Shown here one piece after another: positions 42,414 to 60,004 of a DNA stretch of 64,000 bases. The notes beneath the pieces were generated by a model. The model had not been told where the DNA came from, did not search any database, and saw only the letters and a program-made list of their open reading frames with translations. The first letter of the stretch is position 1. Every line of letters starts with the position of its first letter. The DNA is from Acidobacteriota bacterium (GTDB taxonomy: Bacteria; Acidobacteriota; Terriglobia; Bryobacterales; UBA6623), in contig JAQBUE010000002.1 of the NCBI GenBank assembly GCA_027624045.1, forward strand, positions 6,339 to 70,338, in the 5' to 3' direction. The position numbers and the translations under genes are program-made.

Positions 42414-43577
42414 ATGTTTTCTTCTCGCACGAATTGGAATCGGACGCCGAATCGCCTGAGCGAGGCCCTGGCCCGGCGTCGCGCGGCCGGGCTGGAAATC
42501 TTGGATTTGACGGAATCGAATCCAACGCGTTGCGGCTTCGCCTGGGATGCCGACGCGCTGTTCGATGCGCTGCGGCGTCTCGAAATCGCGGACTACCGCC
42601 CCGAGCCGCGTGGTCTTGAAGAGGCGCGGTCCGCCGTGCGCGGCTACTATGCGGACCAAGGCATTGCGATCGAAGATGAGCAGATTGTCCTGACGGCCAG
42701 CACGAGCGAGGCTTATGCGTTCGTGTTGCGTCTGCTGACCGAACCCGGGGACGAGGTGTTGGGGCCGGCGCCGAGCTATCCCTTGATTCAATACCTAGCG
42801 GATCTGCATGACGTTACGTTGTCGCACTACCCACTGCTCTATGACCATGGCTGGACGGTGGACGCCGCCACCCTGGAATCTTCCGTTACGGACCGAACCA
42901 GGGCTGTGATCGCCGTGTCGCCGAACAATCCGACTGGCTCGTACTTAGGGGACCGGGAGTGCAAGCGGATTCGCCGGCTGGCGGCTGAACACGGAATAGC
43001 ATTGGTCGTGGATGAGGTTTTTCGCGATTACTCCTGGAGCGAAAGCGCACGTCCCCCGGCGAGTACGGTGACGGTTGAGGAGTGTCTTACGTTCACGTTG
43101 AGCGGCCTGTCGAAAGTGTCGGCTCTGCCGCAGATGAAGCTGGGCTGGATCGTGGTGAGCGGGCCGGCGGCTCTGCGCGATGAAGCACTCGGCCGATTGG
43201 AAGTGATCGCCGATACGTACTTATCCGTCAGTACTCCGGTACAGGTCGCCGCGCGGTCACTGATCGAGATGCGGGCCAAGGTTCAGGAGGGGATACTGCG
43301 GCGCGTACGTGGCAACTTGGCTGAACTCGACGACATTTTGAGCGGTTCTCGTTGCAGCCGTTTGCAAGGGGAGGCGGGTTGGTATGCCGTGTTGCGCGTT
43401 CCCAATACCCGCGGCGATGAAGAGTGGGCGCTCGATCTGATCGAGAAGGAAGGGGTCTATCTGCTGCCAGGACATTTCTTCGACTTTCCCGGCGAGGGTC
43501 ACTTGGTGATCAGTCTGATTTCGCCGCCGGAAGCGATTCACAGCGGCTGCAAACGGCTGGTGAGAAACGCAAACTAA
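42414..43577 (+). CDS. PLP-dependent aminotransferase, class I/II
   Basis: SPNNPTGS, VVDEVF and SGLSKVSALPQMKLGW (PLP Lys) motifs. Confidence 0.85.
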   Translation: MFSSRTNWNRTPNRLSEALARRRAAGLEILDLTESNPTRCGFAWDADALFDALRRLEIADYRPEPRGLEEARSAVRGYYADQGIAIEDEQIVLTASTSEAYAFVLRLLTEPGDEVLGPAPSYPLIQYLADLHDVTLSHYPLLYDHGWTVDAATLESSVTDRTRAVIAVSPNNPTGSYLGDRECKRIRRLAAEHGIALVVDEVFRDYSWSESARPPASTVTVEECLTFTLSGLSKVSALPQMKLGWIVVSGPAALRDEALGRLEVIADTYLSVSTPVQVAARSLIEMRAKVQEGILRRVRGNLAELDDILSGSRCSRLQGEAGWYAVLRVPNTRGDEEWALDLIEKEGVYLLPGHFFDFPGEGHLVISLISPPEAIHSGCKRLVRNAN

Positions 43578-44131
43578 GTTTTCTTCCCGGCGGCGGGGCT
43601 CCAGCGGCGTGAAGAAACGACGCCGCTATTGAGACCCAGCATGTTCAGACGTCCGAAAAAGCGGGCGTGCTCAACCTTCATGCATTGATCCATCACGACT
43701 TCGAGGCCGGCTTCACGGGCGCGCTTGGCGGCCTCGTAGTGGATGATACCGAATTGCGTCCAGACGACCTTCGCGCCGATCTCGATGGCTTCTTCGACGA
43801 TCGGCGGTACGTCTTCAGAGGCGCGGAAGATGTTGACAACCTCGACAGGTCCGGGGATGTCCTTCACCGATGGGTAGCAGGTGCGGCCCAGAATCTGCTG
43901 CTCGCGCGGATTGACCGGGATCACGTCGTATCCCTCCGCCAGTAGGTAGCGGGCGGCGAAATGGCTCGGGCGGTAAGGGTTCGAGGAAAGCCCGACCATC
44001 GCGATTCGGCGGTAATCTTCGAGAATGCGCAGCCGGTCTTCCCACGGGGTTGCAAACTCGGTTCTCGCGACGGGCGAGCCGGCGCTCACTCCGCCCGTCG
44101 AGAGACTACAAACCAGATTTTGCCGCCGCAT
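43574..44131 (-). CDS. CoA-binding domain protein (YccU/YneT-like)
   Basis: RRIAMVGLSSNPYRPSHFAARYLLAEGYDVIPVNP and VNIFR are typical of the CoA-binding family. The true start is probably downstream of 44131. Confidence 0.75.
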   Translation of the reverse strand: MRRQNLVCSLSTGGVSAGSPVARTEFATPWEDRLRILEDYRRIAMVGLSSNPYRPSHFAARYLLAEGYDVIPVNPREQQILGRTCYPSVKDIPGPVEVVNIFRASEDVPPIVEEAIEIGAKVVWTQFGIIHYEAAKRAREAGLEVVMDQCMKVEHARFFGRLNMLGLNSGVVSSRRWSPAAGKKT

Positions 44132-44165
44132 CAGGAAACCGGGTTCAGCTTAACGTGCCCGCTGC

Positions 44166-45449
<1,284 letters not shown>

Positions 45450-45663
45450 TTATTGTTCAGCCATAGTCGTCTATCCTACCCTACTGTTAGTGAGATTTTC
45501 AGCGGCACGCTGCCGCCTATTCTGGTTAGCGCGACTTGACCGAACTAGGCGACATGACGGGCTGAAATACTTGACGCGATTCTACTACGTCGCCGCGTCG
45601 CCGCGGGCGGCCATCACCAACAAAAAACCGTCGCACGGGATATAAGGGATATAATTGGTCACG

Positions 45664-47016
45664 ATGAAGTACTGTGGACTTGTTTTGCTGTTCGCCTTGG
45701 GGATGGGGGTGTCATCGGCCCAGGTGAGCTACTACAACGACTTGCGCCCGGTTGTCGAGCGCTCGTGCCAGGGCTGCCATCAACCGGCAGGCAAGATGGG
45801 CGGGCTGGACTTGACGTCCTACGAGGCGATCACGGCGGGCGGAAACAAAGGGCCGTCGTTTGTCGCGGGTGCGGCCGAGGAAAGCCGCCTCGTGACGCTG
45901 CTGACGGGCGCGGGCGAACCCCGCATGCCGTTTGGTCAGGACCCCTTAGCGGACAGTGAGATCGACCTGTTCCGGCGCTGGGTGAGCGAGGGCGCCAAGG
46001 ATGATACGCCCGAATCTGCGCGAGGGCCGCAAGTGCCGTCCGAGCCTCCCACTTACGATCAGCCGCCCGTGCTGACCGCCGCCGCGTTTTCACCGGACGG
46101 GAAACTGCTGGCCGTCGGCGGGTATCGCGAGATTCTGCTTCACAAGGCCGATGGCTCGAAGATCGAAACGCGCTTGCTGGGACGATCCGACCGTATTCAC
46201 TCTGTCGCTTTCACGCCCGATGGAACGAAGCTCGTAGCCGTGGGCGGTACGCCGGGGCGCTTCGGCGAAGTTCAGGTTTGGGACCTCGCTTCGAAGACGC
46301 AACTGCATTCGGTGATGGCAACCGCTGACACGCTCTTTGGCGGCGCGCTTTCGCCGGATGGAACGCACGTCGTGGTCGGCGGTGCGGACAACCGCGTGCG
46401 GGTCATTGAGATCGCGACGGGCAAGGAGTTGTTCAAGGCTGGGCATCATGAAGATTGGGTGCTCGATGCCATTTTCGGGATTGATGGCAAGCGGGTTGTC
46501 ACGGTAGGCCGCGACCGCGCGGCCAAGCTGGCGGACGCCCAAACCGGCGCATTCCTAGAGAACGTCAACTTCCTGCGCGATGAGTTGTACGTGATTGCGC
46601 GCCACCCGCGGCGTGATTATGTGTTGATTGGCGGCGCGGACCGCGTGCCTTACCTCTATATGATGGACCGGCCGCGAGCGTTGAAGATCGCGGATGACTC
46701 GACGCTCGTGCGGAAATTCGATGAGCAGGAGGACGCGATTCACGCGCTGGCATTCAGCCAGGACGGCAGCCGCATCGCAGTCGGCGGCATCGCCGAGTTC
46801 GTCAATATCTACGACACCGAGTCGGGCGAGCGGGTGGCGAGTTGCAAGTTGCCGGCCGGAGGAGCTTTCGTGCTGGAGTTTCCTCCCGACGGCCGGCAGT
46901 TGCTGGCCGGGGGATTTGATGGCTTGTTGCGGGTTTTCGATGTTGCAAGTGGCAAGCAGGTGAAGGAGTTTTCGCCGGTCCCTCTTGAAAAGGGGCGGTT
47001 GCGGTCGGCCCGCTAG
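45664..47016 (+). CDS. secreted c-type-cytochrome-domain (PSCyt1-like) protein fused to a WD40 beta-propeller
   Basis: Signal peptide MKYCGLVLLFALGMGVSSAQ. CQGCHQPAGKMGGLDLTSYEAI is a CxxCH motif and RMPFGQDPLADSEIDLFRRWVSEGA follows. Repeated FSPDG..LA.GG...V.VWD-type WD40 units come after. Confidence 0.8.
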   Translation: MKYCGLVLLFALGMGVSSAQVSYYNDLRPVVERSCQGCHQPAGKMGGLDLTSYEAITAGGNKGPSFVAGAAEESRLVTLLTGAGEPRMPFGQDPLADSEIDLFRRWVSEGAKDDTPESARGPQVPSEPPTYDQPPVLTAAAFSPDGKLLAVGGYREILLHKADGSKIETRLLGRSDRIHSVAFTPDGTKLVAVGGTPGRFGEVQVWDLASKTQLHSVMATADTLFGGALSPDGTHVVVGGADNRVRVIEIATGKELFKAGHHEDWVLDAIFGIDGKRVVTVGRDRAAKLADAQTGAFLENVNFLRDELYVIARHPRRDYVLIGGADRVPYLYMMDRPRALKIADDSTLVRKFDEQEDAIHALAFSQDGSRIAVGGIAEFVNIYDTESGERVASCKLPAGGAFVLEFPPDGRQLLAGGFDGLLRVFDVASGKQVKEFSPVPLEKGRLRSAR

Positions 47017-47032
47017 AAGGGCTTTTGACGAA

Positions 47033-49426
47033 ATGAAACGTCGCCTGTTGATATTGTTCTCCGGGTTGGCCCTCACGGCTTCGGCGGCGGGGCCTTCGCT
47101 CACCATGATGCAGCCTTGGGGAGGGCAGCGAGGCACGGCGGTGACGCTTACGCTCACAGGCTATGACCTCACCGATGATGTTCGGATCCTGACGAGTCTG
47201 CCCGGCGCGTTGACCGAACTGACGGCGGACCGCCCCGGCCGCGAGTTGCCGCTGCTGGTCGAGATCGCGAAGGATGCGCAGATTGGTTCCTACCCGATTC
47301 GCGTAGAGACGAAGGCGGGGATTTCGAACGTGCTGCTGTTCACCGTGGGTCCGCTTAAGGAACAGGCCGAAGCTGAATCAGAAACGATGCGGCAGGTGTA
47401 TTCGAACGATTCGGCGGAAACCGCGGAACAAGTAACGTTGCCGGCGACAGTGAACGGCTTGCTGCGGGGAGCGGACCGTGATTGGTACCGAGTGAGCGGC
47501 GCGGCGGGCGAGAAAGTTGTGCTTGAGGTTGAGGCCCGGCGTATCGGCTCGGCGATTGACGCAACACTCGAAGTGCGCGATAGCTCGGGCAACACGATTG
47601 CGCGAAACAACGATGCGCGCGGCATTGACGTCGATCCCAGAACGGAAGTGACGGTTCCGGCGGACGGCGCGTTCTTCGTTGAGGTGCATGACGCGCGGTT
47701 CAGCGAGCAGCGGATGAATTTCTATCGCTTGCGCGTGGGGCGGTATACGTTCGCGGAGGCGGTTTTCCCGCTCGGCTGGAAGCGCGGCGAAGCGATAGAC
47801 GTGCACTTGCTCGGAGGCAATCTCGATAAGCCGCTGACGGTGAAGCCGGACCTCTCTCCCGAAGCGACCGCGGCAGGTTTCGCTGCCTTGCGGTTGCCGG
47901 ATGAAAACGGCCCGCTGCCCTTGCTCATGGTTGTCGGTGACGGCGATGAAATGCTGGAGCCCACAGGCAACGGTCCCTACGAGTTGAAGCCTGAGGTGGT
48001 GGTGAATGGCCGTGTTGCCGCTGCGGGCGAAGTGGACCGTTACCGCCTCAAAGTCAACAAGGGCGAGCAGTGGATGATCGAGACGCAGGCGGCGGGGCTC
48101 GGAACATCGGCCTTGTACGGGCTGCTCACGCTATACGGCGCGGACGGGGAGAAGCTGGCGTCGGCGGGCGATCAGGAGCCGGAGAAGCCGTTATCGATCA
48201 TCTCGTCGGCAGGCGAAACGTTCGGGGACCCGCACCTGGGATTTGAGGTCCCTGAGGGCCTGAGCGAAGTCAGCATCAGCATTGAAGATTTGCTGGGGCG
48301 CGGCGGGCTCGATTACGGCTATCGCATCGTGGCGCGGCGGCAGCCCCCGGACTTCACACTCACACTGGGGACGCCGTTTGTAACGATTCCCAAAGACGGC
48401 AGCAGCGTCGTCAACGTGAGCGCCGATCGGCGCGGCTTCGTGGGCGCGATCCGCCTGATCGTGGAAGGGTTGCCTGACGATGTCGATTCGCGCGGCGGAC
48501 ACATCCCCGCCGAAGATGGCGGCATGACGACATCGCGGAGCTCGCGGCGCGGAGTCGTCACATTGACACCGAAACCGGACGCCGAGCTGCGTGAGCTGGC
48601 CTTGGCGGTTTGGGGCGAGGGCGTAACCGAAGATGGCCGCACGATTCGCGTTCGGGCTCAGGCGCCGGGCATGCAGACGGGCGTGATGGGCCGTGGCCAA
48701 AAGGCGGTGAGGGCGGCTTGGCTGGCCCCGGACGTGCCGGCGCGTGTGGCTGAACCCGAAAAAGCTGTCCTCAAGCTGCTCACGCCCCAGACGCTACGCT
48801 TGATCCAGGGGATGGAGGCTAAGGTTCTCTGGGAGTTTGAAGGTGACGCCACCCCTGAGGGCCGCATCAGCGTCGGCAACACGCCTGCCGTGGGTAACAT
48901 TCGAGTGAACGGGACCACGACGGACAAAGAAGGCGCGAAATCCGGTCAGTTCACGGTCGTGACGACGGTGGGCACTCTGCCGATGACGTTCGACTTGATC
49001 GTTAGCGTGAACGCGGAGATCGGCGGCAGGGCACAGACCATTTACGCGCCGGCCCTTGTCGTCGATGTGGTGCAAGGATATCGAATCGAAGCGCCCAAAC
49101 AGTTAACCGAGATTCCGCGTGGCGGCAGCGCGCAGATTCTCGGAGGTTTTCATCGCGAGCCGGACTTCTCGTCGCCGGTGACGGTGAAGGCCGACAATCT
49201 ACCCTTGGGCGTCGAGTGCTCGGCGGCGGAGATCAGCGGAGCGCCGGACGAATATCGGCTGGAGTGCAAGGCCGACGAGTCAGCGACGCCCGGAGAGTAT
49301 GAAATCGAGCTGGCGCCGATGTCGGTGCTGGCCGGACGCGCCACCGAGCTTGTGCCCTATAAGATTGACGCGGTCGCCACACGTATCTCTGTTACGAAAT
49401 CCAGGAAGATGGCGCAGGCGCGATAA
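47033..49426 (+). CDS. secreted ~800-aa protein with two PPC-like (pre-peptidase C-terminal-type) modules, paralog 1
   Basis: Signal peptide MKRRLLILFSGLALTASAAG. NDSAETAEQVTLPATVNGLLRGADRDWYRVSGAAGEKVVLEVEA...GAFFVEVHD resembles a PPC domain, and a second module sits at VVNGRVAAAGEVDRYRLKVNKGEQWMIE. Paralogous to 51965-54391. Confidence 0.7.
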   Translation: MKRRLLILFSGLALTASAAGPSLTMMQPWGGQRGTAVTLTLTGYDLTDDVRILTSLPGALTELTADRPGRELPLLVEIAKDAQIGSYPIRVETKAGISNVLLFTVGPLKEQAEAESETMRQVYSNDSAETAEQVTLPATVNGLLRGADRDWYRVSGAAGEKVVLEVEARRIGSAIDATLEVRDSSGNTIARNNDARGIDVDPRTEVTVPADGAFFVEVHDARFSEQRMNFYRLRVGRYTFAEAVFPLGWKRGEAIDVHLLGGNLDKPLTVKPDLSPEATAAGFAALRLPDENGPLPLLMVVGDGDEMLEPTGNGPYELKPEVVVNGRVAAAGEVDRYRLKVNKGEQWMIETQAAGLGTSALYGLLTLYGADGEKLASAGDQEPEKPLSIISSAGETFGDPHLGFEVPEGLSEVSISIEDLLGRGGLDYGYRIVARRQPPDFTLTLGTPFVTIPKDGSSVVNVSADRRGFVGAIRLIVEGLPDDVDSRGGHIPAEDGGMTTSRSSRRGVVTLTPKPDAELRELALAVWGEGVTEDGRTIRVRAQAPGMQTGVMGRGQKAVRAAWLAPDVPARVAEPEKAVLKLLTPQTLRLIQGMEAKVLWEFEGDATPEGRISVGNTPAVGNIRVNGTTTDKEGAKSGQFTVVTTVGTLPMTFDLIVSVNAEIGGRAQTIYAPALVVDVVQGYRIEAPKQLTEIPRGGSAQILGGFHREPDFSSPVTVKADNLPLGVECSAAEISGAPDEYRLECKADESATPGEYEIELAPMSVLAGRATELVPYKIDAVATRISVTKSRKMAQAR

Positions 49427-49431
49427 CAGGA

Positions 49432-51906
49432 ATGGAGTTCGCTATGTCACGGAAACGACTTTTCACCGCGAGTTTCGGTTTGTGGCTGATGGCAGCGGTC
49501 AGCGCGGTTGGGCTGGGTGCCGAGTTGCAACCGGTAAAGCTCGTCGTTGAGCCCTCGTCTTTGAGTTTGACGACGGCGGAACAGGGACGCCGCGTTCTGG
49601 TGACAGGTGTGACGGCGGATGGCGAGACGTTCGACTTGACGAACGAGGCGCGTTTCGAGGCCACCGGCGAGTCGGTTCGAGCGGCGGAAGACGGATACCT
49701 TCACGGTGTTTCCCAAGGCACGAGTACCCTGCGGGTTTCGGCGCGCGGCCAATCGGCCGAGTTGCCTGTGAAGGTGGGCGGCGAACCTTCGGTCGACCGT
49801 AAGATCAGTTTCCTGCGCGACATCATGCCGGTCTTAAACAAACAGGGCTGCACGTCAGGCCCGTGCCACGGATCGGCGAAAGGCAAGAACGGCTTCAAGC
49901 TTTCGCTGCGGGGATACGACCCGAATTTCGATTACCGCGCTCTGCTCTATGACGTTTCCGGGCGTCGTTTCAACCGCGCCGACCCGGCCCAAAGCCTGAT
50001 GCTCGCAAAGCCCGCACAGGCCGTACCGCACGAGGGCGGACTGCGAATCGAAAAAGGCTCGCGCTACTACAACACGATTCTTAAGTGGATCTCCGAGGGC
50101 ACGCCCTTCGGCGACGAAGCCACGGACTCGGTCGCGAAGCTCGAAGTCATACCGGCGGACGTTTTCATGGGACGTCCCGGTATGAAGCAGCAGATGCTCG
50201 TCGTCGCGCACTACGGTGACGGCTCCGTGCGAGACGTTACACGTGAAGCCGTGGTCGCGAGCAGTCAGGAAACAACCGCCAAGATCGTCGATGGTTCCGT
50301 CGTCGAGGGCGAACGCATCGGCGAGGCGACGCTGATGGTGCGCTACGAAGGCAAGTTCGTGATTGTGCCGGTTACGATTCTCAATCCCGCCCCGGGCTTT
50401 GAGTGGAAGCAGCTCTCGCAGCACAACTATATTGACGAACACATCGACGCCAAGTTGAAACGCTTGAAGATCCAGCCATCCGAGGTTGCCGATGACGGCA
50501 CGTTCGTGCGCCGGGTCTATCTCGACTTGATCGGGATACCGCCCACACCCGAGCAAGCCCGCGACTTTATCGAAGACCCCGAGAAATCACGCCTCAAACG
50601 AATCCGCCTGATCGACGAGTTGATGAAGCGCACCGAGTTCGTCGACCATTGGGCGCTGAAGTGGGGCGACCTGCTGCAGTCGAATCGCAAGTACCTTGGC
50701 GAAAAGGGCACCTGGGCGTTTCGGCAGTGGATTCGCGATCAGATCGCAACGAACCGGCCCTATGACGAGGTTGTGCGCGATTTGATCACGTCGAGCGGCA
50801 GTACCTATCAGAACCCGCCGGCCAACTTCTTCCGGGTGAACAAAGACCCGAAGGAGGCGATGGAGAAAACGACACAGTTATTCCTCGGCGTGCGCATGGC
50901 CTGCGCGCAGTGTCATGACCATCCGTTTGAGCGCTGGACACAAAATCAGTACTACCAGCTTGCCGCGTTTTTCGCGTCGGTCGGGGTAAAGCCGGGGTTC
51001 GACAGCGACGAAGAGATCGTTTACCTCAAGCGCAGCGACAACACGGTCAAGCATCCCAAGACCGGCAAGGTCGTGGAAGCGGAGTATCTGATTGCGAGCG
51101 CCGGAGCGCCGCCGTTGAACACAGAGGAAGACCGCCGCAAGGCACTAGCCACGTGGCTGACCTCGGATAAGAATCCGTTCTTTGCCAGGGCCATTCCGAA
51201 CCGCCTGTGGAGTTACTTCTTTGGGCGCGGCATTATCGATCCGGTGGATGACATTCGCGCTTCGAACCCGCCTGTCAACGAGGCGCTGCTGCAAGCTCTC
51301 GCGGATGACTTCGTGAAGAATGGCTATGACCTGCAGCACGTCATTCGGACGATTGTGAATTCGCGCGCCTATCAGACCGGCATCGCGGCCAATGAATGGA
51401 ACGCCAAGGACGAGACGAACTTTTCGCGGTTTGTGCCTCGCAGGTTGACGGCTGAGTCGCTGCTCGATGCGATTACGGTGGCGACGGGATCGCGGCCGGA
51501 GTTCGAGGAAGTGCCTCTGGATTTCACGGCGCAACAGTTGCCCGATCCGCACGTTGGCAAGGGCGGGTTCCTCGACATGTTCGGGCGGCCCGAGCGGGAG
51601 TCGGCTTGCGAGTGCGAGCGGCGCAGCGAGATGAGTCTGCCGCAGGCGATGAGTTTGGTCAATGGTCCCACGCTGGCTGAAGCGATCGCTGACCCCGAGG
51701 GCCGTGTGGCGGAGGCGATTCTGGGCGGCAAACCTGATCGCGAGTTGGTGGAGGAGTTGTATCTCGCGGCGCTGAGCCGCCTGCCAACGCCGGGTGAGAT
51801 GGATAAGGCTTTGACGTATCTGCGGCAGGGCACGGGACGCGCCTCGAAGGCCCAGGATCTGCTGTGGGCTTTGGTCAATAGCAACGCGTTCTTATTCAAT
51901 CGCTGA
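49432..51906 (+). CDS. DUF1549/DUF1553 (PSCyt2/PSD1-like) protein with N-terminal Ig-like domain
   Basis: Signal peptide present. CHGSAKGKNGFKLSLRGYDPNFDY is the DUF1549 block and CAQCHDHPFERWTQNQYYQLAAFF is the DUF1553 block. The start could be ATG 49432 or 49444. Confidence 0.85.
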   Translation: MEFAMSRKRLFTASFGLWLMAAVSAVGLGAELQPVKLVVEPSSLSLTTAEQGRRVLVTGVTADGETFDLTNEARFEATGESVRAAEDGYLHGVSQGTSTLRVSARGQSAELPVKVGGEPSVDRKISFLRDIMPVLNKQGCTSGPCHGSAKGKNGFKLSLRGYDPNFDYRALLYDVSGRRFNRADPAQSLMLAKPAQAVPHEGGLRIEKGSRYYNTILKWISEGTPFGDEATDSVAKLEVIPADVFMGRPGMKQQMLVVAHYGDGSVRDVTREAVVASSQETTAKIVDGSVVEGERIGEATLMVRYEGKFVIVPVTILNPAPGFEWKQLSQHNYIDEHIDAKLKRLKIQPSEVADDGTFVRRVYLDLIGIPPTPEQARDFIEDPEKSRLKRIRLIDELMKRTEFVDHWALKWGDLLQSNRKYLGEKGTWAFRQWIRDQIATNRPYDEVVRDLITSSGSTYQNPPANFFRVNKDPKEAMEKTTQLFLGVRMACAQCHDHPFERWTQNQYYQLAAFFASVGVKPGFDSDEEIVYLKRSDNTVKHPKTGKVVEAEYLIASAGAPPLNTEEDRRKALATWLTSDKNPFFARAIPNRLWSYFFGRGIIDPVDDIRASNPPVNEALLQALADDFVKNGYDLQHVIRTIVNSRAYQTGIAANEWNAKDETNFSRFVPRRLTAESLLDAITVATGSRPEFEEVPLDFTAQQLPDPHVGKGGFLDMFGRPERESACECERRSEMSLPQAMSLVNGPTLAEAIADPEGRVAEAILGGKPDRELVEELYLAALSRLPTPGEMDKALTYLRQGTGRASKAQDLLWALVNSNAFLFNR

Positions 51907-51964
51907 TCGCGGAAGTGGTGGAAGAACAGTCCCCATTTTCCGCATTGCTGATTGCTGGGTGAGT

Positions 51965-54391
51965 ATGACGACTCGACTCCTTTGCCTGATTATTCTTGTG
52001 CAATGGGCGCTGCAGGCCGCCGCGCCGGCGCTGCTCCGGATCGAGCCTCGCGGCGGACAACGCGGCCAGGCGGTGAAGCTGACTTTAGTCGGCCGCGGGC
52101 TGGATGAGAATGCCTCGATCGAGACAAAGATTCCCGGTGCCGTGACGGCGCTCTCACCGCCCAAGAGCTCGATGGCGCGCGGACGCGAGTTGCCGTTTCT
52201 CGTCGAAATCTCCCCCGAAGCAGCGCTCGGTGTTTATCCGGTTCGTGTTCAATCGCCCGACGGGTTGTCGAATGTTCTGCTGTTCACGGTGGGCGCGTTC
52301 CCTGAGGTTGCAGAGCGCGAGGCCGAGCTGATGGAGCCCAAGCCGGCGAATGATTCCGCCGCGAACGCTCAGCCGATTGAGACGCCGGTGATCGTGAACG
52401 GGACGCTTTATGGTCCTGACCGCGATTACTTTTCATTCCAGGCCGGCAAGGGCGAGCGGCTCGTGATCGAGGTCGAAGCGCGCCGTATCGGTTCCGCCGT
52501 CGATCCGCTGATCGAGGTGCTAGACGCGGCGGGCCGCAGGCTGACCTGGAACGACGATGCGCCGGGGATCGGCATCGATGCGCGTGTCGATGTCAGCTTT
52601 CCTGAGCAAGGGACGTACTTTGTCGCCCTGCGCGATTCGAAGTTCAGCGAACAGGAACAGGACTACTACCGCCTGAAGATCGGCAAGTACGCCTATGCGG
52701 AAGGCCTCTATCCATTGGGCTGGCAGCGCAGCGGAGAGACGGAAGTTGAGTTTGTCGGCGGCAATCTCGGCGAGGCGATTCGGGTGCGTCCGGATCTGGC
52801 GACTGAGCAGCTCGCAGCCGAGTTCGCCATGCTGCACCTACCGGGCGAGGCCGGAGCGCTGCCCATGCCGTTCGCGTTGAGTGGCGAGCGGGAAACCTTG
52901 GAATCACCCGGACAGAAGAACACACTCGAGCCTCAGTCCTGGATGAACGGCCGCATCGCGAAGCCGGGCGAGATCGATACCTACGTCTTGAAGGTGAAGC
53001 CGCAAGAGCATTGGTATGTCGAACTGCATGCCACCACTCTTGGCACATCGCGGCTCTATGGCGTCCTGACAGTTCGCGAGCCCGGCGGTGAGCGGATTGC
53101 TTCGACTCGCAGCTTGAGCGCAGAGGAGAAGCTCTCGAACCTCGACGTTTCCGAAGATACGGGCATCGACCAGTTCGTATCGTTCCAAGCAGGGGAAGCA
53201 GCCAAGGAAGGGCACGGCGAAATCCACATTGAAGTCGAAGACCTGCTCGGCCGCGGCGCGCCTGACTTCGGCTATCGAATCGTGGCGCGGCGTCAGAGCG
53301 GCGATTTCACGCTGACTCTGCGAACACATGAAGTGAACGTCCCCGCGAGCGGAACCGGGCTGGTCGTCGTCAACGCCGAGCGTCGCGGTTATGACGGTCC
53401 GATCCGCTTGTTCGTGCCCGAGATCCCCGAAGGATTAGTCGCCGAGGGTGGCAACATGCCGCTCTACGAGATCGCGGGCAGCACGCGGCAAGGGTCTTCG
53501 GCACTACTGACGCTGACCCACAAGCCGGGCGCGGAACTACGGAATGCGAGCCTTCAAATTTGGGGCGAAGCCGAGATGGGCGGGCAGCTCGTGCGGCGCA
53601 GAGCACGCGGCCCGGGGCTGGAAGTGAATGTTCAGAGTGAGAACGAGATCCAACGCTTAAACCGCGGCTTCAGCAGCGCGAACGTCGCCCCGTGGCTCGG
53701 CGCGGACTTGCCGCTTCGGATCGTGCCGGAAGCGCCGGCGGCCATTGAAGTCAGCACGTCGCGCTACATGCGTGTGATTCCGGGCTTGAAGTACGAGCTC
53801 GATTGGAAGCTCACAAGCCGCGACGAAGACATCAGCCCGCCGAAAAATATGGGCGTCAATAAGACGCCCAACGTGCGAACCTTCAACCGCTCCCGCAAGG
53901 AAGACCAAGGCAAGGCGCAGGGGACACTTGATGTCGGCAGCCAGCTCAGTTGGGGGCCCGGTAAGTACGAAATGGTTCTCACCGCCCGGGTCGATGTCGA
54001 CGGCCAAAGGGAGACGATCTACGCCCCGGCGATAACGGTCGATGTGATTCGTGCTTACGAAATCGAGCCGGAAGTCACTTCGATCCGGGCGGGCGCCGAG
54101 ACCGAACTTGTGGCGCAGCTCAAGCGCGAACCGGGCTTCGAGTCCCCGGTAGAGATCAAGGCCGAAAACCTGCCCTTGGATGTCGAATGTGAAACGGTGA
54201 CCGTCGCGCCTGACACCTCCGCCATGAGCGTCCCATGCAGGGCGGGCGCGAAGGTCGAGCCGGGCGAATACGAAATTGATCTCGCGTCTTCCTCGGTCGT
54301 GATCGGCGACGACCAACGTGAGATCCCCATCACCCGCCCGCCGGTCAAAGCCACGCTTCGGGTTGTTCGAGCCGCCTTGGCCGCCCGTTGA
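51965..54391 (+). CDS. secreted ~800-aa protein with two PPC-like modules, paralog 2
   Basis: Collinear similarity to 47033-49426. Examples: VIEVEARRIGSAVDPLIEVLDAAG, FSEQEQDYYRLKIGKYAYAEGLYPLGWQR and LLGRGAPDFGYRIVARRQSGDFTLTL. Confidence 0.7.
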   Translation: MTTRLLCLIILVQWALQAAAPALLRIEPRGGQRGQAVKLTLVGRGLDENASIETKIPGAVTALSPPKSSMARGRELPFLVEISPEAALGVYPVRVQSPDGLSNVLLFTVGAFPEVAEREAELMEPKPANDSAANAQPIETPVIVNGTLYGPDRDYFSFQAGKGERLVIEVEARRIGSAVDPLIEVLDAAGRRLTWNDDAPGIGIDARVDVSFPEQGTYFVALRDSKFSEQEQDYYRLKIGKYAYAEGLYPLGWQRSGETEVEFVGGNLGEAIRVRPDLATEQLAAEFAMLHLPGEAGALPMPFALSGERETLESPGQKNTLEPQSWMNGRIAKPGEIDTYVLKVKPQEHWYVELHATTLGTSRLYGVLTVREPGGERIASTRSLSAEEKLSNLDVSEDTGIDQFVSFQAGEAAKEGHGEIHIEVEDLLGRGAPDFGYRIVARRQSGDFTLTLRTHEVNVPASGTGLVVVNAERRGYDGPIRLFVPEIPEGLVAEGGNMPLYEIAGSTRQGSSALLTLTHKPGAELRNASLQIWGEAEMGGQLVRRRARGPGLEVNVQSENEIQRLNRGFSSANVAPWLGADLPLRIVPEAPAAIEVSTSRYMRVIPGLKYELDWKLTSRDEDISPPKNMGVNKTPNVRTFNRSRKEDQGKAQGTLDVGSQLSWGPGKYEMVLTARVDVDGQRETIYAPAITVDVIRAYEIEPEVTSIRAGAETELVAQLKREPGFESPVEIKAENLPLDVECETVTVAPDTSAMSVPCRAGAKVEPGEYEIDLASSSVVIGDDQREIPITRPPVKATLRVVRAALAAR

Positions 54392-54423
54392 AGCTTTAAC
54401 AAACTAGCCTGCACGAAGCTCGG

Positions 54424-55653
54424 CTATTGCCGCCCGGGCTGAGCCCTAAGCCGCGCTTCAACCAGGGCCGCTTCCTGGGTCCGTCCTTGGCCGCGCAGCA
54501 CATCAAGATAAGTCGCCAGGACGACCGCTAGACCGGTGTTTTCCGGCCCGGCGATGGAGTCGAGAATCGCCAAGGAGCGCTCGATAAGGGGCGCCGCATC
54601 GGCGTAGCGTTGCTGGTCGCGATAAAGAGCCGCCAAGTTATGCAGGGCTGTCGCGGTTTCGGGATGATCGAGGCCGACAGCCTGCTCCCAAACGGCCACG
54701 GCTTCGCGGTACAGCTCTTCCGCGTCCGCGAACTGATGTTGAACGCGATAAACCTCCGCCAGATTATTGAGGTCGGTAGCGCGAGCGGCGGGGTCGGAAT
54801 TATCGCTGCCTTTACGAAGTTCTAGGGCTTGCTCGAGAAGGCGTTCCGCCTCGGCCATTTGAAAGCGACCCCGATAGACGGCGGAAAGATTGCTGCAACT
54901 CTGGGCCATCCTGGCATCGGCAGGGTCGAGGACGCGGCTCCGCACGGCCAGGGCTTGCTCGAGCACAGGAGCGGCACGCTCGGGCCGGCCGCCGGCGTTG
55001 TGGATGACTCCCAGGTCGCTCAGTAGATCGGCGTACTCGGCGTTATCGGTGCCGAGGTGGGCCTTCGTGATCTCGGCGGCGCGGGCTAGCGCGGCTGCGG
55101 CCTCTTCCAGTTGTGCCGCGCTGAAGTAGGCCTTCGAAAGCTGAATCAGGGGCTCGCGGAGAGCTTCATTCCCGGCCCCCAGCGCTTTCTCTCGGATCTC
55201 GACAATCCGCTTATAAAGCGGGACAGCATCGGTGGTTTTACCTCGAATCCGCTGCAGCTCAGCAAGATTTTCTAGGAGTGTCGCCAGCTCCGGATGGAAC
55301 GGGCCAAGACTGCCCTCCAAGATCTTCGCCGCGCGCCAATAGAGCGGTTCGGCCAGATGAAACTGGCGCTGGGCGTAGTACAGCAGACCGAGGCTGTTCA
55401 GAGACGCCGCCACACGCGGGTCCTGCAGTCCGAACCGCTCGGCTGCCTTGAGAGCCGCGACGTAGGAATCTTCCGCTTCGCTGTACTTTCGTTCGGCGAG
55501 ATGCTGGTCGCCTACTTCACGGAGTTGCCGCCACACTTCGGTCTGCGCGAAGCTTGTTGGTGCGGCGCCCGTCGCGGCGAGAGCAAGAGCCACGACGGTG
55601 AGAAGAGAACTGATTAGAGGGTTTCTCAACAAGGTTCTCAAAAGCTTTCTCAA
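54424..55653 (-). CDS. secreted tetratricopeptide-repeat protein
   Basis: A signal-like N-terminus is followed by about 8 repeats of the A..L.NLA.LY..QG.Y..AE.LY..AL type (TPR_10/12-like). TTG start. Confidence 0.8.
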   Translation of the reverse strand: MRKLLRTLLRNPLISSLLTVVALALAATGAAPTSFAQTEVWRQLREVGDQHLAERKYSEAEDSYVAALKAAERFGLQDPRVAASLNSLGLLYYAQRQFHLAEPLYWRAAKILEGSLGPFHPELATLLENLAELQRIRGKTTDAVPLYKRIVEIREKALGAGNEALREPLIQLSKAYFSAAQLEEAAAALARAAEITKAHLGTDNAEYADLLSDLGVIHNAGGRPERAAPVLEQALAVRSRVLDPADARMAQSCSNLSAVYRGRFQMAEAERLLEQALELRKGSDNSDPAARATDLNNLAEVYRVQHQFADAEELYREAVAVWEQAVGLDHPETATALHNLAALYRDQQRYADAAPLIERSLAILDSIAGPENTGLAVVLATYLDVLRGQGRTQEAALVEARLRAQPGRQ

Positions 55654-55691
55654 CCACAGACCCCGCGATCGTAATACACTTTGACCTAAAG

Positions 55692-56879
55692 ATGTTTTAT
55701 CAGATCCGTCTCGTACTCAGTGCATGCCTGCTCGCGGCCGCGGCGCAGGCCCAGGCTCCGCCGCCCGCGGTTCACGTTCCAGCCGGCTCTTTCCTGATGG
55801 GGTCCGCCGAGGGTGCGACCTGGGAAAAGCCCGTCCACGAGATTCATGTTTCTGAGTTTGAAATTAGTAAACGCCCAGTGACTTTGAGCGAGTACCGCGC
55901 GTTCCGGCCGTCACATCCCGCACAGACCGGACTTTCCGCGAACGCCGATGCCGCGTCGAGCCCCGTTACGGGCGTGAGCTGGGACGACGCGCAGGCCTAT
56001 TGCCAGTGGCTCGCTACGCGCACCGGCGGCCGCTATCGGCTGCCGACCGAGGCCGAGTGGGAAAAGGCCGTTCGAGGTGGCCTCGACGGCAAGAAATACC
56101 CCTGGGGTGATGACCCGCCGGTTCCTGAAGACAAAGCTAACGACGCCGGCCACCGGATTCCCGAGCGCGCCAACCCGTGGGGAATCGTCGCCGGCGTTTA
56201 TAACCTTTGGGAGTGGGTGGCCGACGGCTATTCGGCAGACTACTACCGCGACTCGCCGGCCCGCGACCCGCAAGGGCCCGAGAATGTGCGCTACCGCGTC
56301 CTGCGGGGCGGCGGGTATCGCAGTGACCCGAACAGCATGCGCTGTGCGAACCGCGGCAGCGCGCGGCCCGCGACGGCGTCGGATGTGATCACATTTCGCG
56401 TCGCCCGTGGTGATGCTCCGACCCCGCCGACTGTCAGCGAGGCGCCGCCCGCCACTGAACCAAAGCCCGCGCCGCAGGCAGCCCGTGTCCAGGCGCAGCC
56501 CGCGGCGGCTCCAGTGCCAACTCCAGCGCCGACACGAACGGGGGCGGCTGATGCGGTTTCGGTCAACGGGATCTCGGTCGAGAGCGACTCCTCCCAAGTG
56601 ACGGTCACGATTCGCACAAGTGGCGCACCTAAATACAAGACGATGGCGCTGAGCGGTCCCGATCGTCTGGTGATCGATATTGCGGGCGGCACGATGAGCG
56701 CTCCGCGCGCTCAGCAGCGTATCGATGTCGCCGCGCTCGGCGTCAGCCGCGTGCGCGCTGCACAGTTCAAGAACGACCCGCCCATCGCGAGAATCGTCGT
56801 CGACATGGATGCGAAGCTCGACTCCGACATTGCTGTCGAAGACAACAGTCTCGTCGTGCGGCTGCGGCCGAAACAGTAG
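55692..56879 (+). CDS. formylglycine-generating-enzyme-family (SUMF1/PvdO-like) domain fused to a C-terminal AMIN domain
   Basis: Signal peptide, then VTGVSWDDAQAYCQWL, YNLWEWVADGY and RVLRGGGYRSDPNSMRCANR (FGE-sulfatase fold), then a Pro/Ala linker. The tail VTVTIRTSGAPKYKTMALSGPDRLVIDIAGG...RVRAAQFKNDPPIARIVVDM is AMIN-like. Confidence 0.8.
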   Translation: MFYQIRLVLSACLLAAAAQAQAPPPAVHVPAGSFLMGSAEGATWEKPVHEIHVSEFEISKRPVTLSEYRAFRPSHPAQTGLSANADAASSPVTGVSWDDAQAYCQWLATRTGGRYRLPTEAEWEKAVRGGLDGKKYPWGDDPPVPEDKANDAGHRIPERANPWGIVAGVYNLWEWVADGYSADYYRDSPARDPQGPENVRYRVLRGGGYRSDPNSMRCANRGSARPATASDVITFRVARGDAPTPPTVSEAPPATEPKPAPQAARVQAQPAAAPVPTPAPTRTGAADAVSVNGISVESDSSQVTVTIRTSGAPKYKTMALSGPDRLVIDIAGGTMSAPRAQQRIDVAALGVSRVRAAQFKNDPPIARIVVDMDAKLDSDIAVEDNSLVVRLRPKQ

Positions 56880-56929
56880 CGCCCTTCTCGGCGCGCCGGC
56901 CGCCCGCGCTATGGCTTGATACGTCGAGG

Positions 56930-58255
56930 TTGCCGCCGATTCACGAAGATTCAGCGACGATGACAACAGCGATGACAACAGCGATGACTACGACCATAAC
57001 GATCACGCGACTCCTTCTGGCCTGGCTGTTGGGCGCCATGCTGCTGTCCGCCGGGCAGAATCGCCTGCTTGTCATTTCTATCGACGGCCTGGACCACCGT
57101 TGGCTGCGCGATTGCGACAGCCTTGGCCTGCGCATCCCCCATTTGCGAAAGCTCATGGATGAGGGCATGCTGGCCGATGGCGTGACCGGTATTGTCCCGA
57201 CTGTGACGTGGCCGTCGCACACGACGATGATCACGGGACTGACCGGGCCCGAGCATGGCATCGTTTCGAACAACCAGCCGGGCAAACCGGGACAGCGCTG
57301 GTGGTATGTCCGCTTCCTGAAAGCGAAGACACTTTGGCATCTAGCGCACGAGAAGGGCCTGAAGACGGCTGCCGTGTGGTGGCCTGTCACGGTCGGTGCC
57401 GATATTGACTACAACTTCCCCGATTTTCGGGAAGATCCCTCGGTTCGGCCTGACGCTTTCGCGCCGGTCCTCAAGCACAGCACGCCGGGGCTGGCGGAAG
57501 AGGTTGCGAAAGCGTATCCGTCATTCCTGCGACAAAGCCTCACCGACCGCCAGCGGGTGATCGCGGCACGCTACATCCTGGAACACAAGCAGCCGGAGTT
57601 GTTCCTGCTGCAACTGGCGGAGTTGGATTCCGAGCAGCATGCGACGGGCGCGTTTTCGAAGAACGCGAAAGCTACCCTCGAATACCAGGATGAACTCCTG
57701 GGGCCGCTGCTTGACACGATACCTGAAGGAACTTTTGTTACGGTCGTATCTGACCACGGTTTCGAAACACAAGAGCGCGTCTTCCGGCCGAAGGTTGCAT
57801 TGCAAGAGGCGGGAATTGAGGCCGACGTTCTGGTCGGGGAGGGTATCTTCGCTGTGCGGGGCGGCGCGGATGGCGAGGCCGCTCGTTTCTTCCGTTCTCA
57901 GATTGGCAGGCCAGGCTCGGTGATCGAACGCGAAGTGTCCGTGGGCGAGGTGCTTGGCATGGAGCCGAACTTCAACGGCTGGAGCGCCTTTTTCGAAAAC
58001 ACGTTCGGCGTCTTGCCGCTTGACGACGCCAGCGGCCCGGCGGTCGGTCCCGGCAACGGCGGCGGCAATCACGGACTTTGGCCCACACGGAAGGACTATC
58101 GCGCGGCGTTGCTGGTGTGGGGACCCTGGATCGACTCGGGGAGATTGCCGGAGACATCGATGCTCGACATCGCTCCGACCTTCGCCGATATTCTGGGTCT
58201 CGAGCTGCCCAACCCCCGAGGCAAGTCGCTTTGGAAAAGCATCCGCCGCGAGTAG
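56930..58255 (+). CDS. nucleotide pyrophosphatase/phosphodiesterase (alkaline-phosphatase superfamily, NPP-type)
   Basis: LLVISIDGLDHRWL and PTVTWPSHTTMITG (Thr nucleophile block), plus SDHGF. The start is ambiguous among TTG 56930 and ATGs at 56960, 56972 and 56984. Confidence 0.8.
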   Translation: MPPIHEDSATMTTAMTTAMTTTITITRLLLAWLLGAMLLSAGQNRLLVISIDGLDHRWLRDCDSLGLRIPHLRKLMDEGMLADGVTGIVPTVTWPSHTTMITGLTGPEHGIVSNNQPGKPGQRWWYVRFLKAKTLWHLAHEKGLKTAAVWWPVTVGADIDYNFPDFREDPSVRPDAFAPVLKHSTPGLAEEVAKAYPSFLRQSLTDRQRVIAARYILEHKQPELFLLQLAELDSEQHATGAFSKNAKATLEYQDELLGPLLDTIPEGTFVTVVSDHGFETQERVFRPKVALQEAGIEADVLVGEGIFAVRGGADGEAARFFRSQIGRPGSVIEREVSVGEVLGMEPNFNGWSAFFENTFGVLPLDDASGPAVGPGNGGGNHGLWPTRKDYRAALLVWGPWIDSGRLPETSMLDIAPTFADILGLELPNPRGKSLWKSIRRE

Positions 58256-58300
58256 ACAGGCGGCGGAATCACCTCGGACCCCAAGAAACAAGAAGGTCAC

Positions 58301-58597
58301 GTGCCGGCAACGATCGAAGTCGAAGCAATATCCAGCGGCGAGTACAACGTCGTTGTCAAAGAGTCCGGCGGCGAGACGCGCCACCGCGTTCGAGTCGACC
58401 CCGGCTATGCCCAAAAACTCACGGGTGGGACCGCATCAACGACCGCATCGACCCTGGAGCTGCTGCGGCGGTCGTTCGAATTCCTGCTCGAACGCGAGCC
58501 CAAGGAGTCGATCCTCGGGTCCTTCGATTTGCCCCTGATCGGGCGCTATTTCGCTGAATACGAGAGGGTCATCGCCGATTCGTTCTCGTCTAGGTAG
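58301..58597 (+). CDS. hypothetical small protein
   Basis: 98-aa ORF with coding-like composition. No motif recognised. Confidence 0.4.
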   Translation: MPATIEVEAISSGEYNVVVKESGGETRHRVRVDPGYAQKLTGGTASTTASTLELLRRSFEFLLEREPKESILGSFDLPLIGRYFAEYERVIADSFSSR

Positions 58598-58717
58598 AAG
58601 CTCACGCGCAATTAGGGTTTGCGGCTGAGGCTTGAAATTGCCATACTCAAAGGATCGTAGGATAATCGAAGAGGATCGCGCCACGCCACCTCGTGGGTCG
58701 GCGCGAAGGAGTTCTGT

Positions 58718-60004
58718 GTGAAGCGGACCGGGCCGGAAGAAACTTTGCGTTGCTCTTTTTGCCACAAGACCCAAGAGGTCGTTGGCAAACTGATTTCGAC
58801 CCCCGGCGACTACCCGAAGGCGTACATCTGTGATGAGTGTGTAGCCGTCTGCAACTCGATCCTCGAGGATGACCGCCGCGAGACGCCGGGTCCGAACCTG
58901 TTTACGCTGCTGAAACCCCAGGAAATCAAGGAACGCCTTGACCAGTACGTCATCGGGCAAGAGCAGGCCAAGAAGAAGCTCGCCGTCGCCGTCTACAACC
59001 ACTACAAGCGCGTCTTCATGACGAAGCAGCGCAGCGCCGATGTCGAGTTGCAGAAATCGAACATCCTGCTGGTCGGCCCCACCGGCACAGGCAAAACACT
59101 GCTGGCCCAGACGCTCGCCAAGATCCTGGATGTGCCGTTCGCCATCGCCGACGCCACCACGCTTACCGAAGCCGGTTACGTAGGCGAGGATGTCGAGAAC
59201 ATCATCCTCAAGCTGCTGCAAGCCGCCGATGGCGACGTGCAGCGCGCTCAGCAGGGTATCATCTACATCGACGAGATTGACAAGCTCAGCCGCAAGGACG
59301 AGAATTCTTCGATCACGCGCGACGTTTCCGGCGAAGGCGTGCAACAAGCGTTGCTGAAGATACTCGAGGGCACGGTCGCCAACGTCCCGCCGCAGGGCGG
59401 CCGCAAACACCCGCATCAGGAGTTCACTCCGGTCGATACGACGAACATCCTTTTCATTTGCGGAGGCGCGTTCGTTGGACTCGAGAAGATCATCGCCCGG
59501 CGCCTGAATCACCGCGTAGTCGGGTTCCGTTCACCTTCAGAACCGAAGGAAGGCTTGAAAGCCATCCCGGCCGCGAAGATCGATCAAGGCGAGCGGGATT
59601 CCGAGTTGCTCATTCAGGTTCAGCCACAGGACTTGATTCGGCACGGCTTCATCCCCGAGTTCGTGGGCCGCCTGCCGGTTAACACGGTCCTGACCGCTCT
59701 CGACCAGCCGGCGCTAGTCCAGATCTTGACTCAGCCTAAGAATTCCCTCGTCAGGCAGTATCAAAAACTCTTTGAGTTCGAGAACATCAGTCTCACCTTC
59801 GAGCCCGAAGCCTTGGAGGCCATTGCCGCCTTGGCGCTTGATCGCAAGGTAGGGGCGCGCGGCCTGCGGATGATTCTCGAAGAGATGATGCTCGACCTGA
59901 TGTACTACCTGCCATCGAAGAAGCACGTCAAGGAATTTCTCATCACCAAGCCGATGGTCGAGAATCACAGCCTCAGCTTGATCATCCTCGAGAAGGCCGG
60001 TTAG
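58718..60004 (+). CDS. clpX: ATP-dependent Clp protease ATP-binding subunit ClpX
   Basis: GTG start 7 nt after GAAGGAG. Zinc-binding CSFCHK...CDEC, Walker A GPTGTGKT, and IYIDEIDK. Confidence 0.95.

Follow-up and report, generated by a model that had tools for sequence, protein, structure and literature searches.

A Bryobacterales form of the exported PSCyt/PSD/DUF1501 gene module, without DUF1501 in the operon and with a second PPC-type paralogue

Introduction

Soil and aquatic members of the Acidobacteriota, Planctomycetota and Verrucomicrobiota encode thousands of PSCyt, PSD and DUF1501 proteins. The gene neighbourhoods of DUF1501 were described in Planctomycetes, Verrucomicrobia and Lentisphaerae (Kamneva et al. 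2012, Genome Biol Evol, PMC3542564), and the most complex type comprises four genes, encoding a DUF1501 protein (sometimes with a twin-arginine translocation (Tat) signal), a signal-peptide protein with a weak PPC match, a PSCyt1/Big_2/PSCyt2/PSD1 protein and a PSCyt1/WD40 protein. Membrane-associated electron transport was proposed there, with the function left open; it is stated to be unknown in PMC5615132, and later papers agree. Here we analyze a cluster of four genes (g1 to g4) in a stretch of 64,000 nucleotides from an Acidobacteriota bacterium of the order Bryobacterales (GenBank assembly GCA_027624045.1, contig JAQBUE010000002.1, positions 6,339 to 70,338), hereafter called the window. 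We write W for the PSCyt1/WD40 protein (g1), P for the PPC-type protein (g2 and its paralogue g4), D for the protein with PSCyt2 (DUF1549) and PSD1 (DUF1553) (g3), and S for DUF1501.

The cluster is the Bryobacterales form of a conserved exported W/P/D/S module. Three of the four architectures of the described module are found in it (PSCyt1 with WD40, weak PPC, and D), each with a signal peptide and with orthology to clusters that have DUF1501, and the fourth, DUF1501, is supplied by sister operons in Acidobacteriota. The window differs from the described module in its host, which belongs to the Acidobacteriota (Bryobacterales); in the absence of DUF1501 from the operon and from the whole 64 kb; in a second PPC-type paralogue at the DUF1501 position; and in the PSCyt1-like domain of D, which is below Pfam detection and in which C-x4-CH and a His replace CxxCH and Met. 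S is gone from the operon in a large Bryobacterales clade that includes the window, and the P paralogue g4 is placed after D in the window's own subclade. The arrangement is not unprecedented; what is different is that DUF1501 was lost from the operon and a second P was added.

Results

The W-P-D order recurs across Acidobacteriota

Scanning with a profile of the g2 family, one genome per species, we obtained 79 loci (labelled with L-numbers), nearly all of them in metagenome-assembled genomes of Bryobacterales or other Acidobacteriota, and we mapped the window proteins onto each locus. About 57 of the 79 have the order W-P-D, either complete or truncated at a contig end, and this recurrence of the trio rules out chance adjacency. 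A preliminary description of the cluster, made from the DNA letters, had inferred a multi-subunit periplasmic or surface complex; a conserved unit of exported proteins is borne out by the recurring order and by the co-occurrence of the components at 42-87% identity, and in metagenomes also in permuted orders.

The loci are of several types. Twenty-nine have W-P-D only. In 13, DUF1501 follows directly after D on the same strand (W-P-D-S; 15 with one frameshifted and one truncated case), and L086 and L087 are further loci of this kind. The order W-P-D-P was found in six (L004 to L008 and L014), with L089 and L090 found later, and seven loci are partial, W-P or P-D, at contig ends. Finally, about 20 loci have a P paralogue alone in unrelated contexts, a tally that includes L009, which is actually a W-P fragment at a contig end. 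Precomputed Pfam annotation of the loci confirms both W-P-D and W-P-D-S. In the W-P-D-S loci, whose W, P and D genes are in the same order as in the window, identity to the window proteins is 50-61% for W, 42-45% for P and 58-63% for D. DUF1501 can be unlinked or lost while W-P-D stays intact, and about 40 loci without DUF1501 have the trio with all its motifs, at 42-87% identity.

The reverse survey, with a profile of the operon-type DUF1501 against metagenomes, returned 80 loci at 66-91% identity. D lies directly upstream of DUF1501 in 42 of the 47 metagenome loci that have at least 2.6 kb of upstream sequence. Most of these loci have W-P-D-S, seven have D-S-P-W, and W-D-S-P and W-D-S also occur; at one D-S locus (L159), the DUF1501 falls in a database cluster labelled Verrucomicrobiota. 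Membership is kept while the order is shuffled, a classical sign of a functional module, and we regard this as strong evidence that the components act as one such module. The W-P-D-S module is thus widespread in Acidobacteriota, beyond the PVC phyla where it was described (Planctomycetes and Verrucomicrobia with their relatives). The preliminary description had seen the DUF1501 slot as filled by the cytochrome-propeller fusion and two paralogues. Only g4 holds that position; W and P are both regular partners of DUF1501 (PMC3542564; 15 genome loci and about 42 metagenome loci) and not its substitutes.

DUF1501 in the window and in related operons

The lack of a DUF1501 partner, already pointed out in the preliminary description, holds across the 64 kb: a tblastn search of the window with three DUF1501 subtypes gave no match, and no DUF1501 was found by Pfam in 48 window open reading frames (ORFs), essentially all the non-overlapping ORFs of at least about 190 aa.

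DUF1501 belongs to the alkaline-phosphatase/sulfatase superfamily, and the N-terminus of the operon type carries a twin-arginine (RR) motif. It is the presumed enzyme of the module and its most conserved component, with 75-95% identity among operons, next to the 42-45% to the window of the P proteins encoded there. The best 120 database matches to the operon-type DUF1501 are all at least 76% identical. In a tree of DUF1501, eight stand-alone genes without D nearby form a single clade and are 70-75% identical to the operonic ones. The database clusters that hold five of these eight include members named Bryobacteraceae or Acidobacteria, which indicates that unlinked copies of the operon type exist in the same bacterial order. 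Whether this genome carries such a copy outside the window is in our judgement roughly an even question.

Three candidates for the missing partner were rejected. The Phosphodiest/sulfatase-fold gene downstream of the cluster matches Pfam Phosphodiest and Sulfatase, not DUF1501, and the tblastn search gave no match to it. Neither this gene nor the neighbouring FGE-sulfatase+AMIN gene is a DUF1501; a gene on the opposite strand stands between them and the cluster, and their synteny is seen in L088 only. The convergent DUF1501 of L014, a close relative, is of another subfamily (30% identity; Pfam DUF1501 E=1e-100, TAT_signal matched weakly). It is accompanied by a DUF1549/DUF1553 gene of its own; the two make up a canonical pair (L014 17607-21697, minus strand), convergent to g4 and 130 bp past it, at the place taken by the TPR gene in the window.

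W as a predicted c-type cytochrome fused to a propeller

Pfam detects PSCyt1 in g1 at 37.9 bits (cut-off 22) and WD40 families at up to E=6e-35, over a propeller of seven-blade type. This agrees with the preliminary reading of a PSCyt1-like domain with the haem motif CQGCH joined to WD40, and the Pfam families named there (PSCyt1, WD40, PPC, PSCyt2 and PSD1) were all recovered from the cluster. The CxxCH motif is present in 50 of the 56 W orthologues, the other six being unchecked cases that may include truncations. In the alignment, the PSCyt1 domain of W shows invariant C, C, H, M and P, with the methionine of RMP among them.

The PSCyt1 profile matches both haem domains of the cytochrome FoxE (PDB 5mab_A, E=3e-8), with CxxCH and the Met of RMP aligned, and weakly matches hydrazine synthase alpha (E=0.02). 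Weak profile matches of g1 were also obtained to QH_beta (E=9e-6) and to hydrazine synthase beta (E=2e-3), and an NCBIfam search gave sub-threshold propeller matches only. By its sequence, g1 is a predicted c-type cytochrome: it has CxxCH together with a distal ligand that is conserved, and the domain has a homologue among cytochromes c of solved structure. A haem in W is well supported by these motifs, and homology to FoxE makes the haem hypothesis a concrete experiment. Of the redox role that the preliminary description had raised, the haem component is in this way made plausible, by the FoxE homology and the invariant CxxCH and Met.

D carries three cysteine-pair motifs

In g3, Pfam detects PSCyt2/DUF1549 (PF07583) at 174.7 bits (cut-off 29.8) and PSD1/DUF1553 (PF07587) at 156.7 bits (cut-off 28.5). 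The full order is signal peptide, Big_2, PSCyt1-like, Big_2, PSCyt2 and PSD1. The two DUF domains had been correctly assigned to this gene before, but both motifs quoted for them were misplaced. The string CHGSAKGKNGFKLSLRGYD, given as the DUF1549 block, is aa 145-163 and sits inside the separate PSCyt1-like domain with C-x4-CH; CAQCHDHPFERW, given as the DUF1553 block, is aa 491-502, at the C-terminal end of the PSCyt2/DUF1549 match, where CAQCH is located.

The PSCyt1-like domain was found by hhalign alone, Pfam at E<=0.01 detecting no PSCyt1 in g3. Aligned by hhalign with the PSCyt1 of g1 (87%, E=4e-6), its C-x4-CH matches CxxCH and its VPH matches RMP. Conservation of the motifs is complete among D orthologues: all 53 have C-x4-CHG and all 53 have CxxCH, and His200 and the CECER of PSD1 are invariant. 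D also has CxxCHDHP, an invariant motif of the PSCyt2/PSD1 family. In total, D has six cysteines, in three close pairs, and C-x4-CH, CxxCH and CECER are all retained in distant clusters with permuted order. On these grounds D may plausibly bind haem or a metal.

The AF2 model of g3 is poor, with a predicted local distance difference test (pLDDT) score of 65, and a fold search with it matched only the Big_2 domains. These match LigA/LigB and a teneurin-like protein, both by PDB profile and by fold.

D proteins fall into two length classes, one of about 815-840 aa with the N-terminal Big_2 and one of about 727-730 aa without it, whose matches begin at window residue ~110-124 (the classes were seen at L013, L017, L020-L022, L027, L033, L048, L057-L064 and others, and at P0278-P0360). 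Among the genome loci examined, the short class is confined to operons without DUF1501.

P is the fastest-evolving and most often duplicated subunit

The preliminary description had called genes 2 and 4 PPC-like paralogues of about 800 aa, and so they are. Pfam scores PPC at 34.2 bits in g2 (cut-off 25.9) and at 23.4 bits in g4, just under this gathering threshold, and g4 is a full-length homologue of g2, with 41% identity over the full length, the same architecture and the family-invariant residues shared with in-operon P. The architecture of g2 is Ig-like, PPC, Ig-like and a second PPC-like module, followed by three beta-sandwich domains. Its first half is an [Ig-PPC]x2 repeat: in hhalign comparisons, the two PPC-type modules (d2 and d4) match at 96.5% (E=7e-10) and the Ig-like domains (d1 and d3) at 74%. 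The AF2 model of g2 is all-beta (pLDDT 80, predicted template modelling score (pTM) 0.69), and Foldseek against PDB returned for it only generic multi-Ig and macroglobulin-type matches, with template modelling (TM) scores <0.2. Two weak sequence matches were found, that of the P family profile to the collagen-binding PPC domain of clostridial collagenase (E=8e-4) and that of g2 to Pfam Qn_am_d_aIII (E=2e-3).

The family is large, with more than 600 full-length homologues and 3766 representative clusters at E<=1e-30. Single genomes have two to three paralogues; for example, OZ244625.1 holds both L004, with two copies, and L042, and OZ242366.1 holds L007 and L023. Compared with the window over one set of loci, P proteins have 42-79% identity, D proteins 58-87% and W proteins 50-84%. 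P is the fastest-evolving and most often duplicated subunit of the module, and its duplication, relocation and loss fit an interchangeable binding subunit.

At L038, a divergent three-gene set (14463-20540, minus strand) stands beside a stand-alone P paralogue, with no WD40 gene. It encodes a 626-aa protein (21-28% identity to the N-terminal 530 aa of P), a Big_2/PSCyt2/PSD1 protein and a DUF1501.

Origin of g4 and of the operon without DUF1501

In a neighbor-joining tree of P, the in-operon P proteins from loci without DUF1501 form one large Bryobacterales clade, and those of W-P-D-S loci are in other clades. The departure of DUF1501 from the operon took place about once, before the clade of the window arose. 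In the same tree, g4 and its orthologues are placed among stand-alone paralogues (L050 being their sister) and apart from g2. By this placement, g4 is an old paralogue, which at some point took up its place after D. A recent tandem duplication of g2 was considered and rejected, given this grouping and an identity of only 41%.

The position of g4, directly after D, is that of DUF1501 in the sister lineages. It lies there on the same strand, after a gap of about 50-250 nt, in nine loci (the window, L004-L008, L014, L089 and L090), and its orthologues are 75-81% identical to g4 of the window where measured. No two subclades have the same gene content downstream of g4.

The nearest relative, L088, has W, P and D at 91%, 91% and 95% amino-acid identity; W-P-D is intact and g4 is absent. 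By blastn, L088 and the window are collinear over 45627-51910 (88%) and 55647-63486 (85-92%), with no match between. This variable 3' edge of the operon, holding g4 and the TPR gene, is replaced in L088 by about 960 bp (6426-7385), which contain two direct repeats of 142 nt (96% identical) with imperfect hairpins having arms of 35-37 nt. The repeats flank about 600 bp with a called ORF of 94 aa (6896-7180) that has no Pfam match, and no copy of the 142-nt repeat is found in the window. The replacement looks like a small repeat-bounded mobile element or a recombination scar. Most likely, g4 was lost in L088, because more distant relatives (L089, L090, L014 and L004-L008) keep it. The loss implies that g4 is dispensable for keeping W-P-D: g4 is an accessory gene outside the conserved core.

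Gene layout and neighbours

The four genes (Table 1) are on one strand with short gaps, as described before, namely 16 nt between g1 and g2, 5 or 17 nt between g2 and g3 and 52 or 58 nt between g3 and g4. The beginning at 45641 given in the preliminary description does need correction, since it is upstream of both candidate start codons of g1. All four products have Sec-type N-termini with a basic n-region, a hydrophobic core and an A-x-A-like site, judged by reading the sequences by eye, in agreement with the signal peptides previously assigned. GC content at third codon positions is 0.74-0.76 in g1 to g4, as usual for genes of the window.

Table 1. Positions of the cluster, its domains and other features in the window
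Feature	Position (nt)	Strand	Residues (aa)	Remarks
TATAAT box	45650..45655	+		8 nt before the g1 ATG; conserved
g1 (W)	45664 (ATG) or 45655 (TTG) to 47016	+		ORF
PSCyt1 of g1	45766-45930		38-92	Pfam
Haem motif CQGCH of g1	45766-45780		38-42	
WD40 propeller of g1	46078-46971		142-439	
g2 (P)	47033-49426	+		ORF
PPC of g2	47474-47689			Pfam
Second PPC-like module of g2	47975-48349		316-440	hhalign
g3 (D)	49444 or 49432 (alternative ATG) to 51906	+		ORF
Big_2 of g3, N-terminal	~49534-49776			
PSCyt1-like domain of g3	49810-50127		127-232	hhalign
C-x4-CH motif of g3	49849-49869			
Big_2 of g3, second	~50131-50379			
PSCyt2/DUF1549 of g3	50431-50982		334-517	Pfam
CAQCH of g3	50902-50916			
PSD1/DUF1553 of g3	51133-51819		568-796	Pfam
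g4 (second P paralogue)	51959 (GTG) or 51965 (ATG) to 54391	+		ORF
Segment with g4 and TPR gene	51911..55646			3.7 kb; replaced in L088
TPR protein gene	54424-55653	-		next gene downstream of g4
FGE-sulfatase+AMIN gene	55692-56879	+		downstream of TPR gene
Phosphodiest/sulfatase-fold gene	56930-58255	+		alkaline-phosphatase superfamily; Phosphodiest E=1e-36, Sulfatase
PSD3/PSD5/PSD4/PSCyt3/PSD2 and DUF1552 genes	22344-26311	+		pair with 4-nt overlap
TatC translocase gene	20523-21860	-		
Fused uroporphyrinogen-III methyltransferase/HemD gene	28397-29929	-		tetrapyrrole synthesis

A scan of the cluster for promoters and terminators stayed at chance level and was uninformative; it showed no terminator-like site in the 52-nt gap between g3 and g4 and did not flag the TATAAT box 5' of g1. 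An Rfam search of window positions 43000-58000 found nothing. The spacing TATAAT-N7/8-ATG at the start of W is kept in the window, L088, L014, L089 and L004-L008, with a related form, TACAAT-N7-GTG, in another subclade. As a possible -10 element, the box would yield a transcript that is leaderless or nearly so, and it would mark g1 as the first gene of the unit. The alternative for g1 is the TTG start, which has a Shine-Dalgarno-like AAGGGA.

Upstream, on the minus strand, lie genes for a Cys/Met pyridoxal phosphate (PLP) enzyme and a CoA-binding protein, both unrelated to the cluster. In the window and in L014, these two genes stand upstream of W in place of a conserved block of SLT transglycosylase, a 230-aa protein and short-chain dehydrogenase, which is found in L001-L003 and L018. 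The next gene downstream encodes a TPR protein on the opposite strand, as had been reported; as a member of the unit it was rejected, no TPR homologue being found after g4 at any other locus. Beyond it are the FGE-sulfatase+AMIN gene, the Phosphodiest/sulfatase-fold gene and the gene for ClpX. The first two of these lie about 1 kb after D in L088. In L021, L022, L027 and L034, the opposite strand also has FGE-like genes, at a distance of about 4-6 kb upstream of W, and their presence near these operons is probably a coincidence.

The window contains, 20 kb upstream of the cluster, a gene for an 871-aa PSD3/PSD5/PSD4/PSCyt3/PSD2 protein followed by one for a DUF1552 protein (HXXSHH), and a pair of the same type is found near the W-P-D of L003. 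The genes for TatC and for a fused uroporphyrinogen-III methyltransferase/HemD are unlinked to the cluster and have a loose bearing on export and haem supply.

Discussion

On balance, we lean towards an exported, haem-bearing W-P-D complex as the best overall explanation of this locus, with g4 as an extra P and with S acting in trans or dispensed with. W, P, D and g4 would be exported unfolded through Sec, and signal peptides of the Sec type, rather than the Tat type, fit periplasmic haem attachment. W would then receive a c-type haem at CxxCH, with Met as the distal ligand. D would probably receive one at C-x4-CH, with His200, and its CxxCHDHP may hold another haem or a metal. Docking surfaces joining W, D and P into a periplasmic complex could be provided by the Ig-like domains and the propeller of W; in this complex P might bind a macromolecular or insoluble substrate through its PPC modules and g4 might be an alternative or additional specificity subunit for the W-D core. 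Electrons would move between the haems and the bound substrate, in one direction or the other. If S is present, a hydrolytic step on the same substrate may fall to it (ester cleavage of the sulfatase or phosphatase type); here, this step would be supplied in trans by an unlinked DUF1501 or be dispensed with.

Several points weigh against this explanation. No functional study, and no demonstrated function, came out of a full-text literature search on DUF1549, DUF1553, PSCyt and DUF1501. Haem binding in the module is read from motifs and one remote homologue, the role of P as specificity subunit from its evolutionary rate, its paralogy and a weak PPC match, and co-transcription of g1 to g4 from gaps of 5-58 nt. 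No solved relative of PSCyt2 or PSD1 was found by sequence or by fold, and the AF2 model of g3 has pLDDT <50 at residues 139-178, 486-565 and 698-751, around the three cysteine motifs. Moreover, the stand-alone P paralogues show that a P gene can exist, and its product possibly function, apart from W and D.

How complete the module is, and whether g4 belongs to it, admits other readings. That an operon-type DUF1501 elsewhere in the genome acts in trans, completing the module, while g4 is an unrelated later addition at the vacated site, comes close to an even chance in our estimate. The stand-alone DUF1501 clade with its Bryobacteraceae and Acidobacteria cluster members speaks for it, as do the strong conservation of operon-type DUF1501, which argues for importance, and the retention of every invariant motif by D in operons without DUF1501. 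On the other hand, no DUF1501 of any subtype lies in the window, no genome was shown to carry both W-P-D and a stand-alone S, and none of the best 120 DUF1501 matches was linked to a genome with W-P-D only, although their identity of at least 76% makes this a weak test. We are more doubtful that g4 is a mere neighbour, working alone like its stand-alone relatives, so that its position after D would be meaningless. This would account for the grouping of g4 with stand-alone paralogues, for the lone P genes in about 20 unrelated contexts, for the variable genes downstream of g4 and for L088, which keeps W-P-D without it. Yet the same-strand adjacency of D and g4 is kept in nine loci with closely similar g4 proteins, the gap between the two has no terminator-like site, and g4 keeps the family-invariant residues of in-operon P.

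It seems improbable to us that the module is not redox-active at all, its Cys and His forming structural metal sites or disulfides in a machine for binding (through Ig, PPC and Big_2) and DUF1501 hydrolysis of polymers, with the window cluster as a scaffold or remnant. The three close cysteine pairs of D would suit metal or disulfide sites equally well, most of the architecture consists of binding-type domains, carbohydrate-binding modules are known from other PSCyt proteins (PMC5615132; PMC3542564), and g4 can be lost. However, PSCyt1 has a homologue among c-type cytochromes of solved structure, to which its CxxCH and Met ligand align, and each Cys pair is followed by an invariant His, for which a disulfide would have no use; intact W-P-D in about 40 loci without DUF1501, at the identities given above, is unlike decay. 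A bolder version of the haem-bearing complex, to which we give little credence, would make W-P-D a self-sufficient haem-based periplasmic machine, with P subunits as exchangeable specificity modules and DUF1501 as an optional add-on.

The loci provide a natural series, W-P-D-S, W-P-D and W-P-D-P, together with the window and L088, which differ only by g4. If the bolder version holds true, the series could be used for assigning a function to a family of exported proteins that ranks, in Acidobacteriota, Planctomycetota and Verrucomicrobiota, among the largest uncharacterized ones. The value of the locus is in these natural variants, in the link to FoxE and in testable predictions on a long-uncharacterized family, the substrate not being revealed.

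Among known systems other than the four-gene module, one is the canonical pair of a PSCyt1/PSCyt2/PSD1 protein with DUF1501, which occurs near the related loci L014, L038, L023 and L026. The window D shares PSCyt2, PSD1 and CxxCHDHP with it; unlike the pair, the window is without DUF1501 and its D gene is embedded between W and P genes. The DUF1501 proteins of canonical pairs are of other subfamilies, about 30-35% identical to the operon type. The pair of a PSCyt3/PSD2-5 protein (DUF1585, DUF1587, DUF1588, DUF1592, DUF1595) with DUF1552 is likewise an exported two-gene system called 'planctomycete-specific', but it is made of other, unrelated domain families, has neither WD40 nor PPC as a partner, and in the window lies apart from the cluster. 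Quinohaemoprotein amine dehydrogenase, hydrazine synthase and cytochrome cd1 nitrite reductase resemble the window proteins in having c-type haem, a propeller of seven or eight blades and Ig-like domains. Here the likeness is one of analogy, not membership: the matches are far under the family cut-offs, the window propeller is plain WD40 with no cofactor signature, and genes for a gamma subunit or a radical-SAM maturase are not present.

FoxE of Rhodobacter ferrooxidans (PDB 5MAB) is an Fe(II) oxidase, a periplasmic dihaem His/Met cytochrome c found beside the propeller-like FoxY (PMC10654088). Compared with it, W has a single PSCyt1 domain, fused to WD40 rather than to a propeller of the pyrroloquinoline quinone (PQQ) type; the window system is without the FoxZ transporter, no link to iron oxidation was found, and the similarity is at the domain level only. 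What the two systems share is a c-type cytochrome paired with a beta-propeller in the periplasm, and the PSCyt1 profile matches both FoxE domains. It is conceivable that W, with its PSCyt1 domain, and D, with its C-x4-CH domain, come together like the halves of FoxE, forming a dihaem site between subunits.

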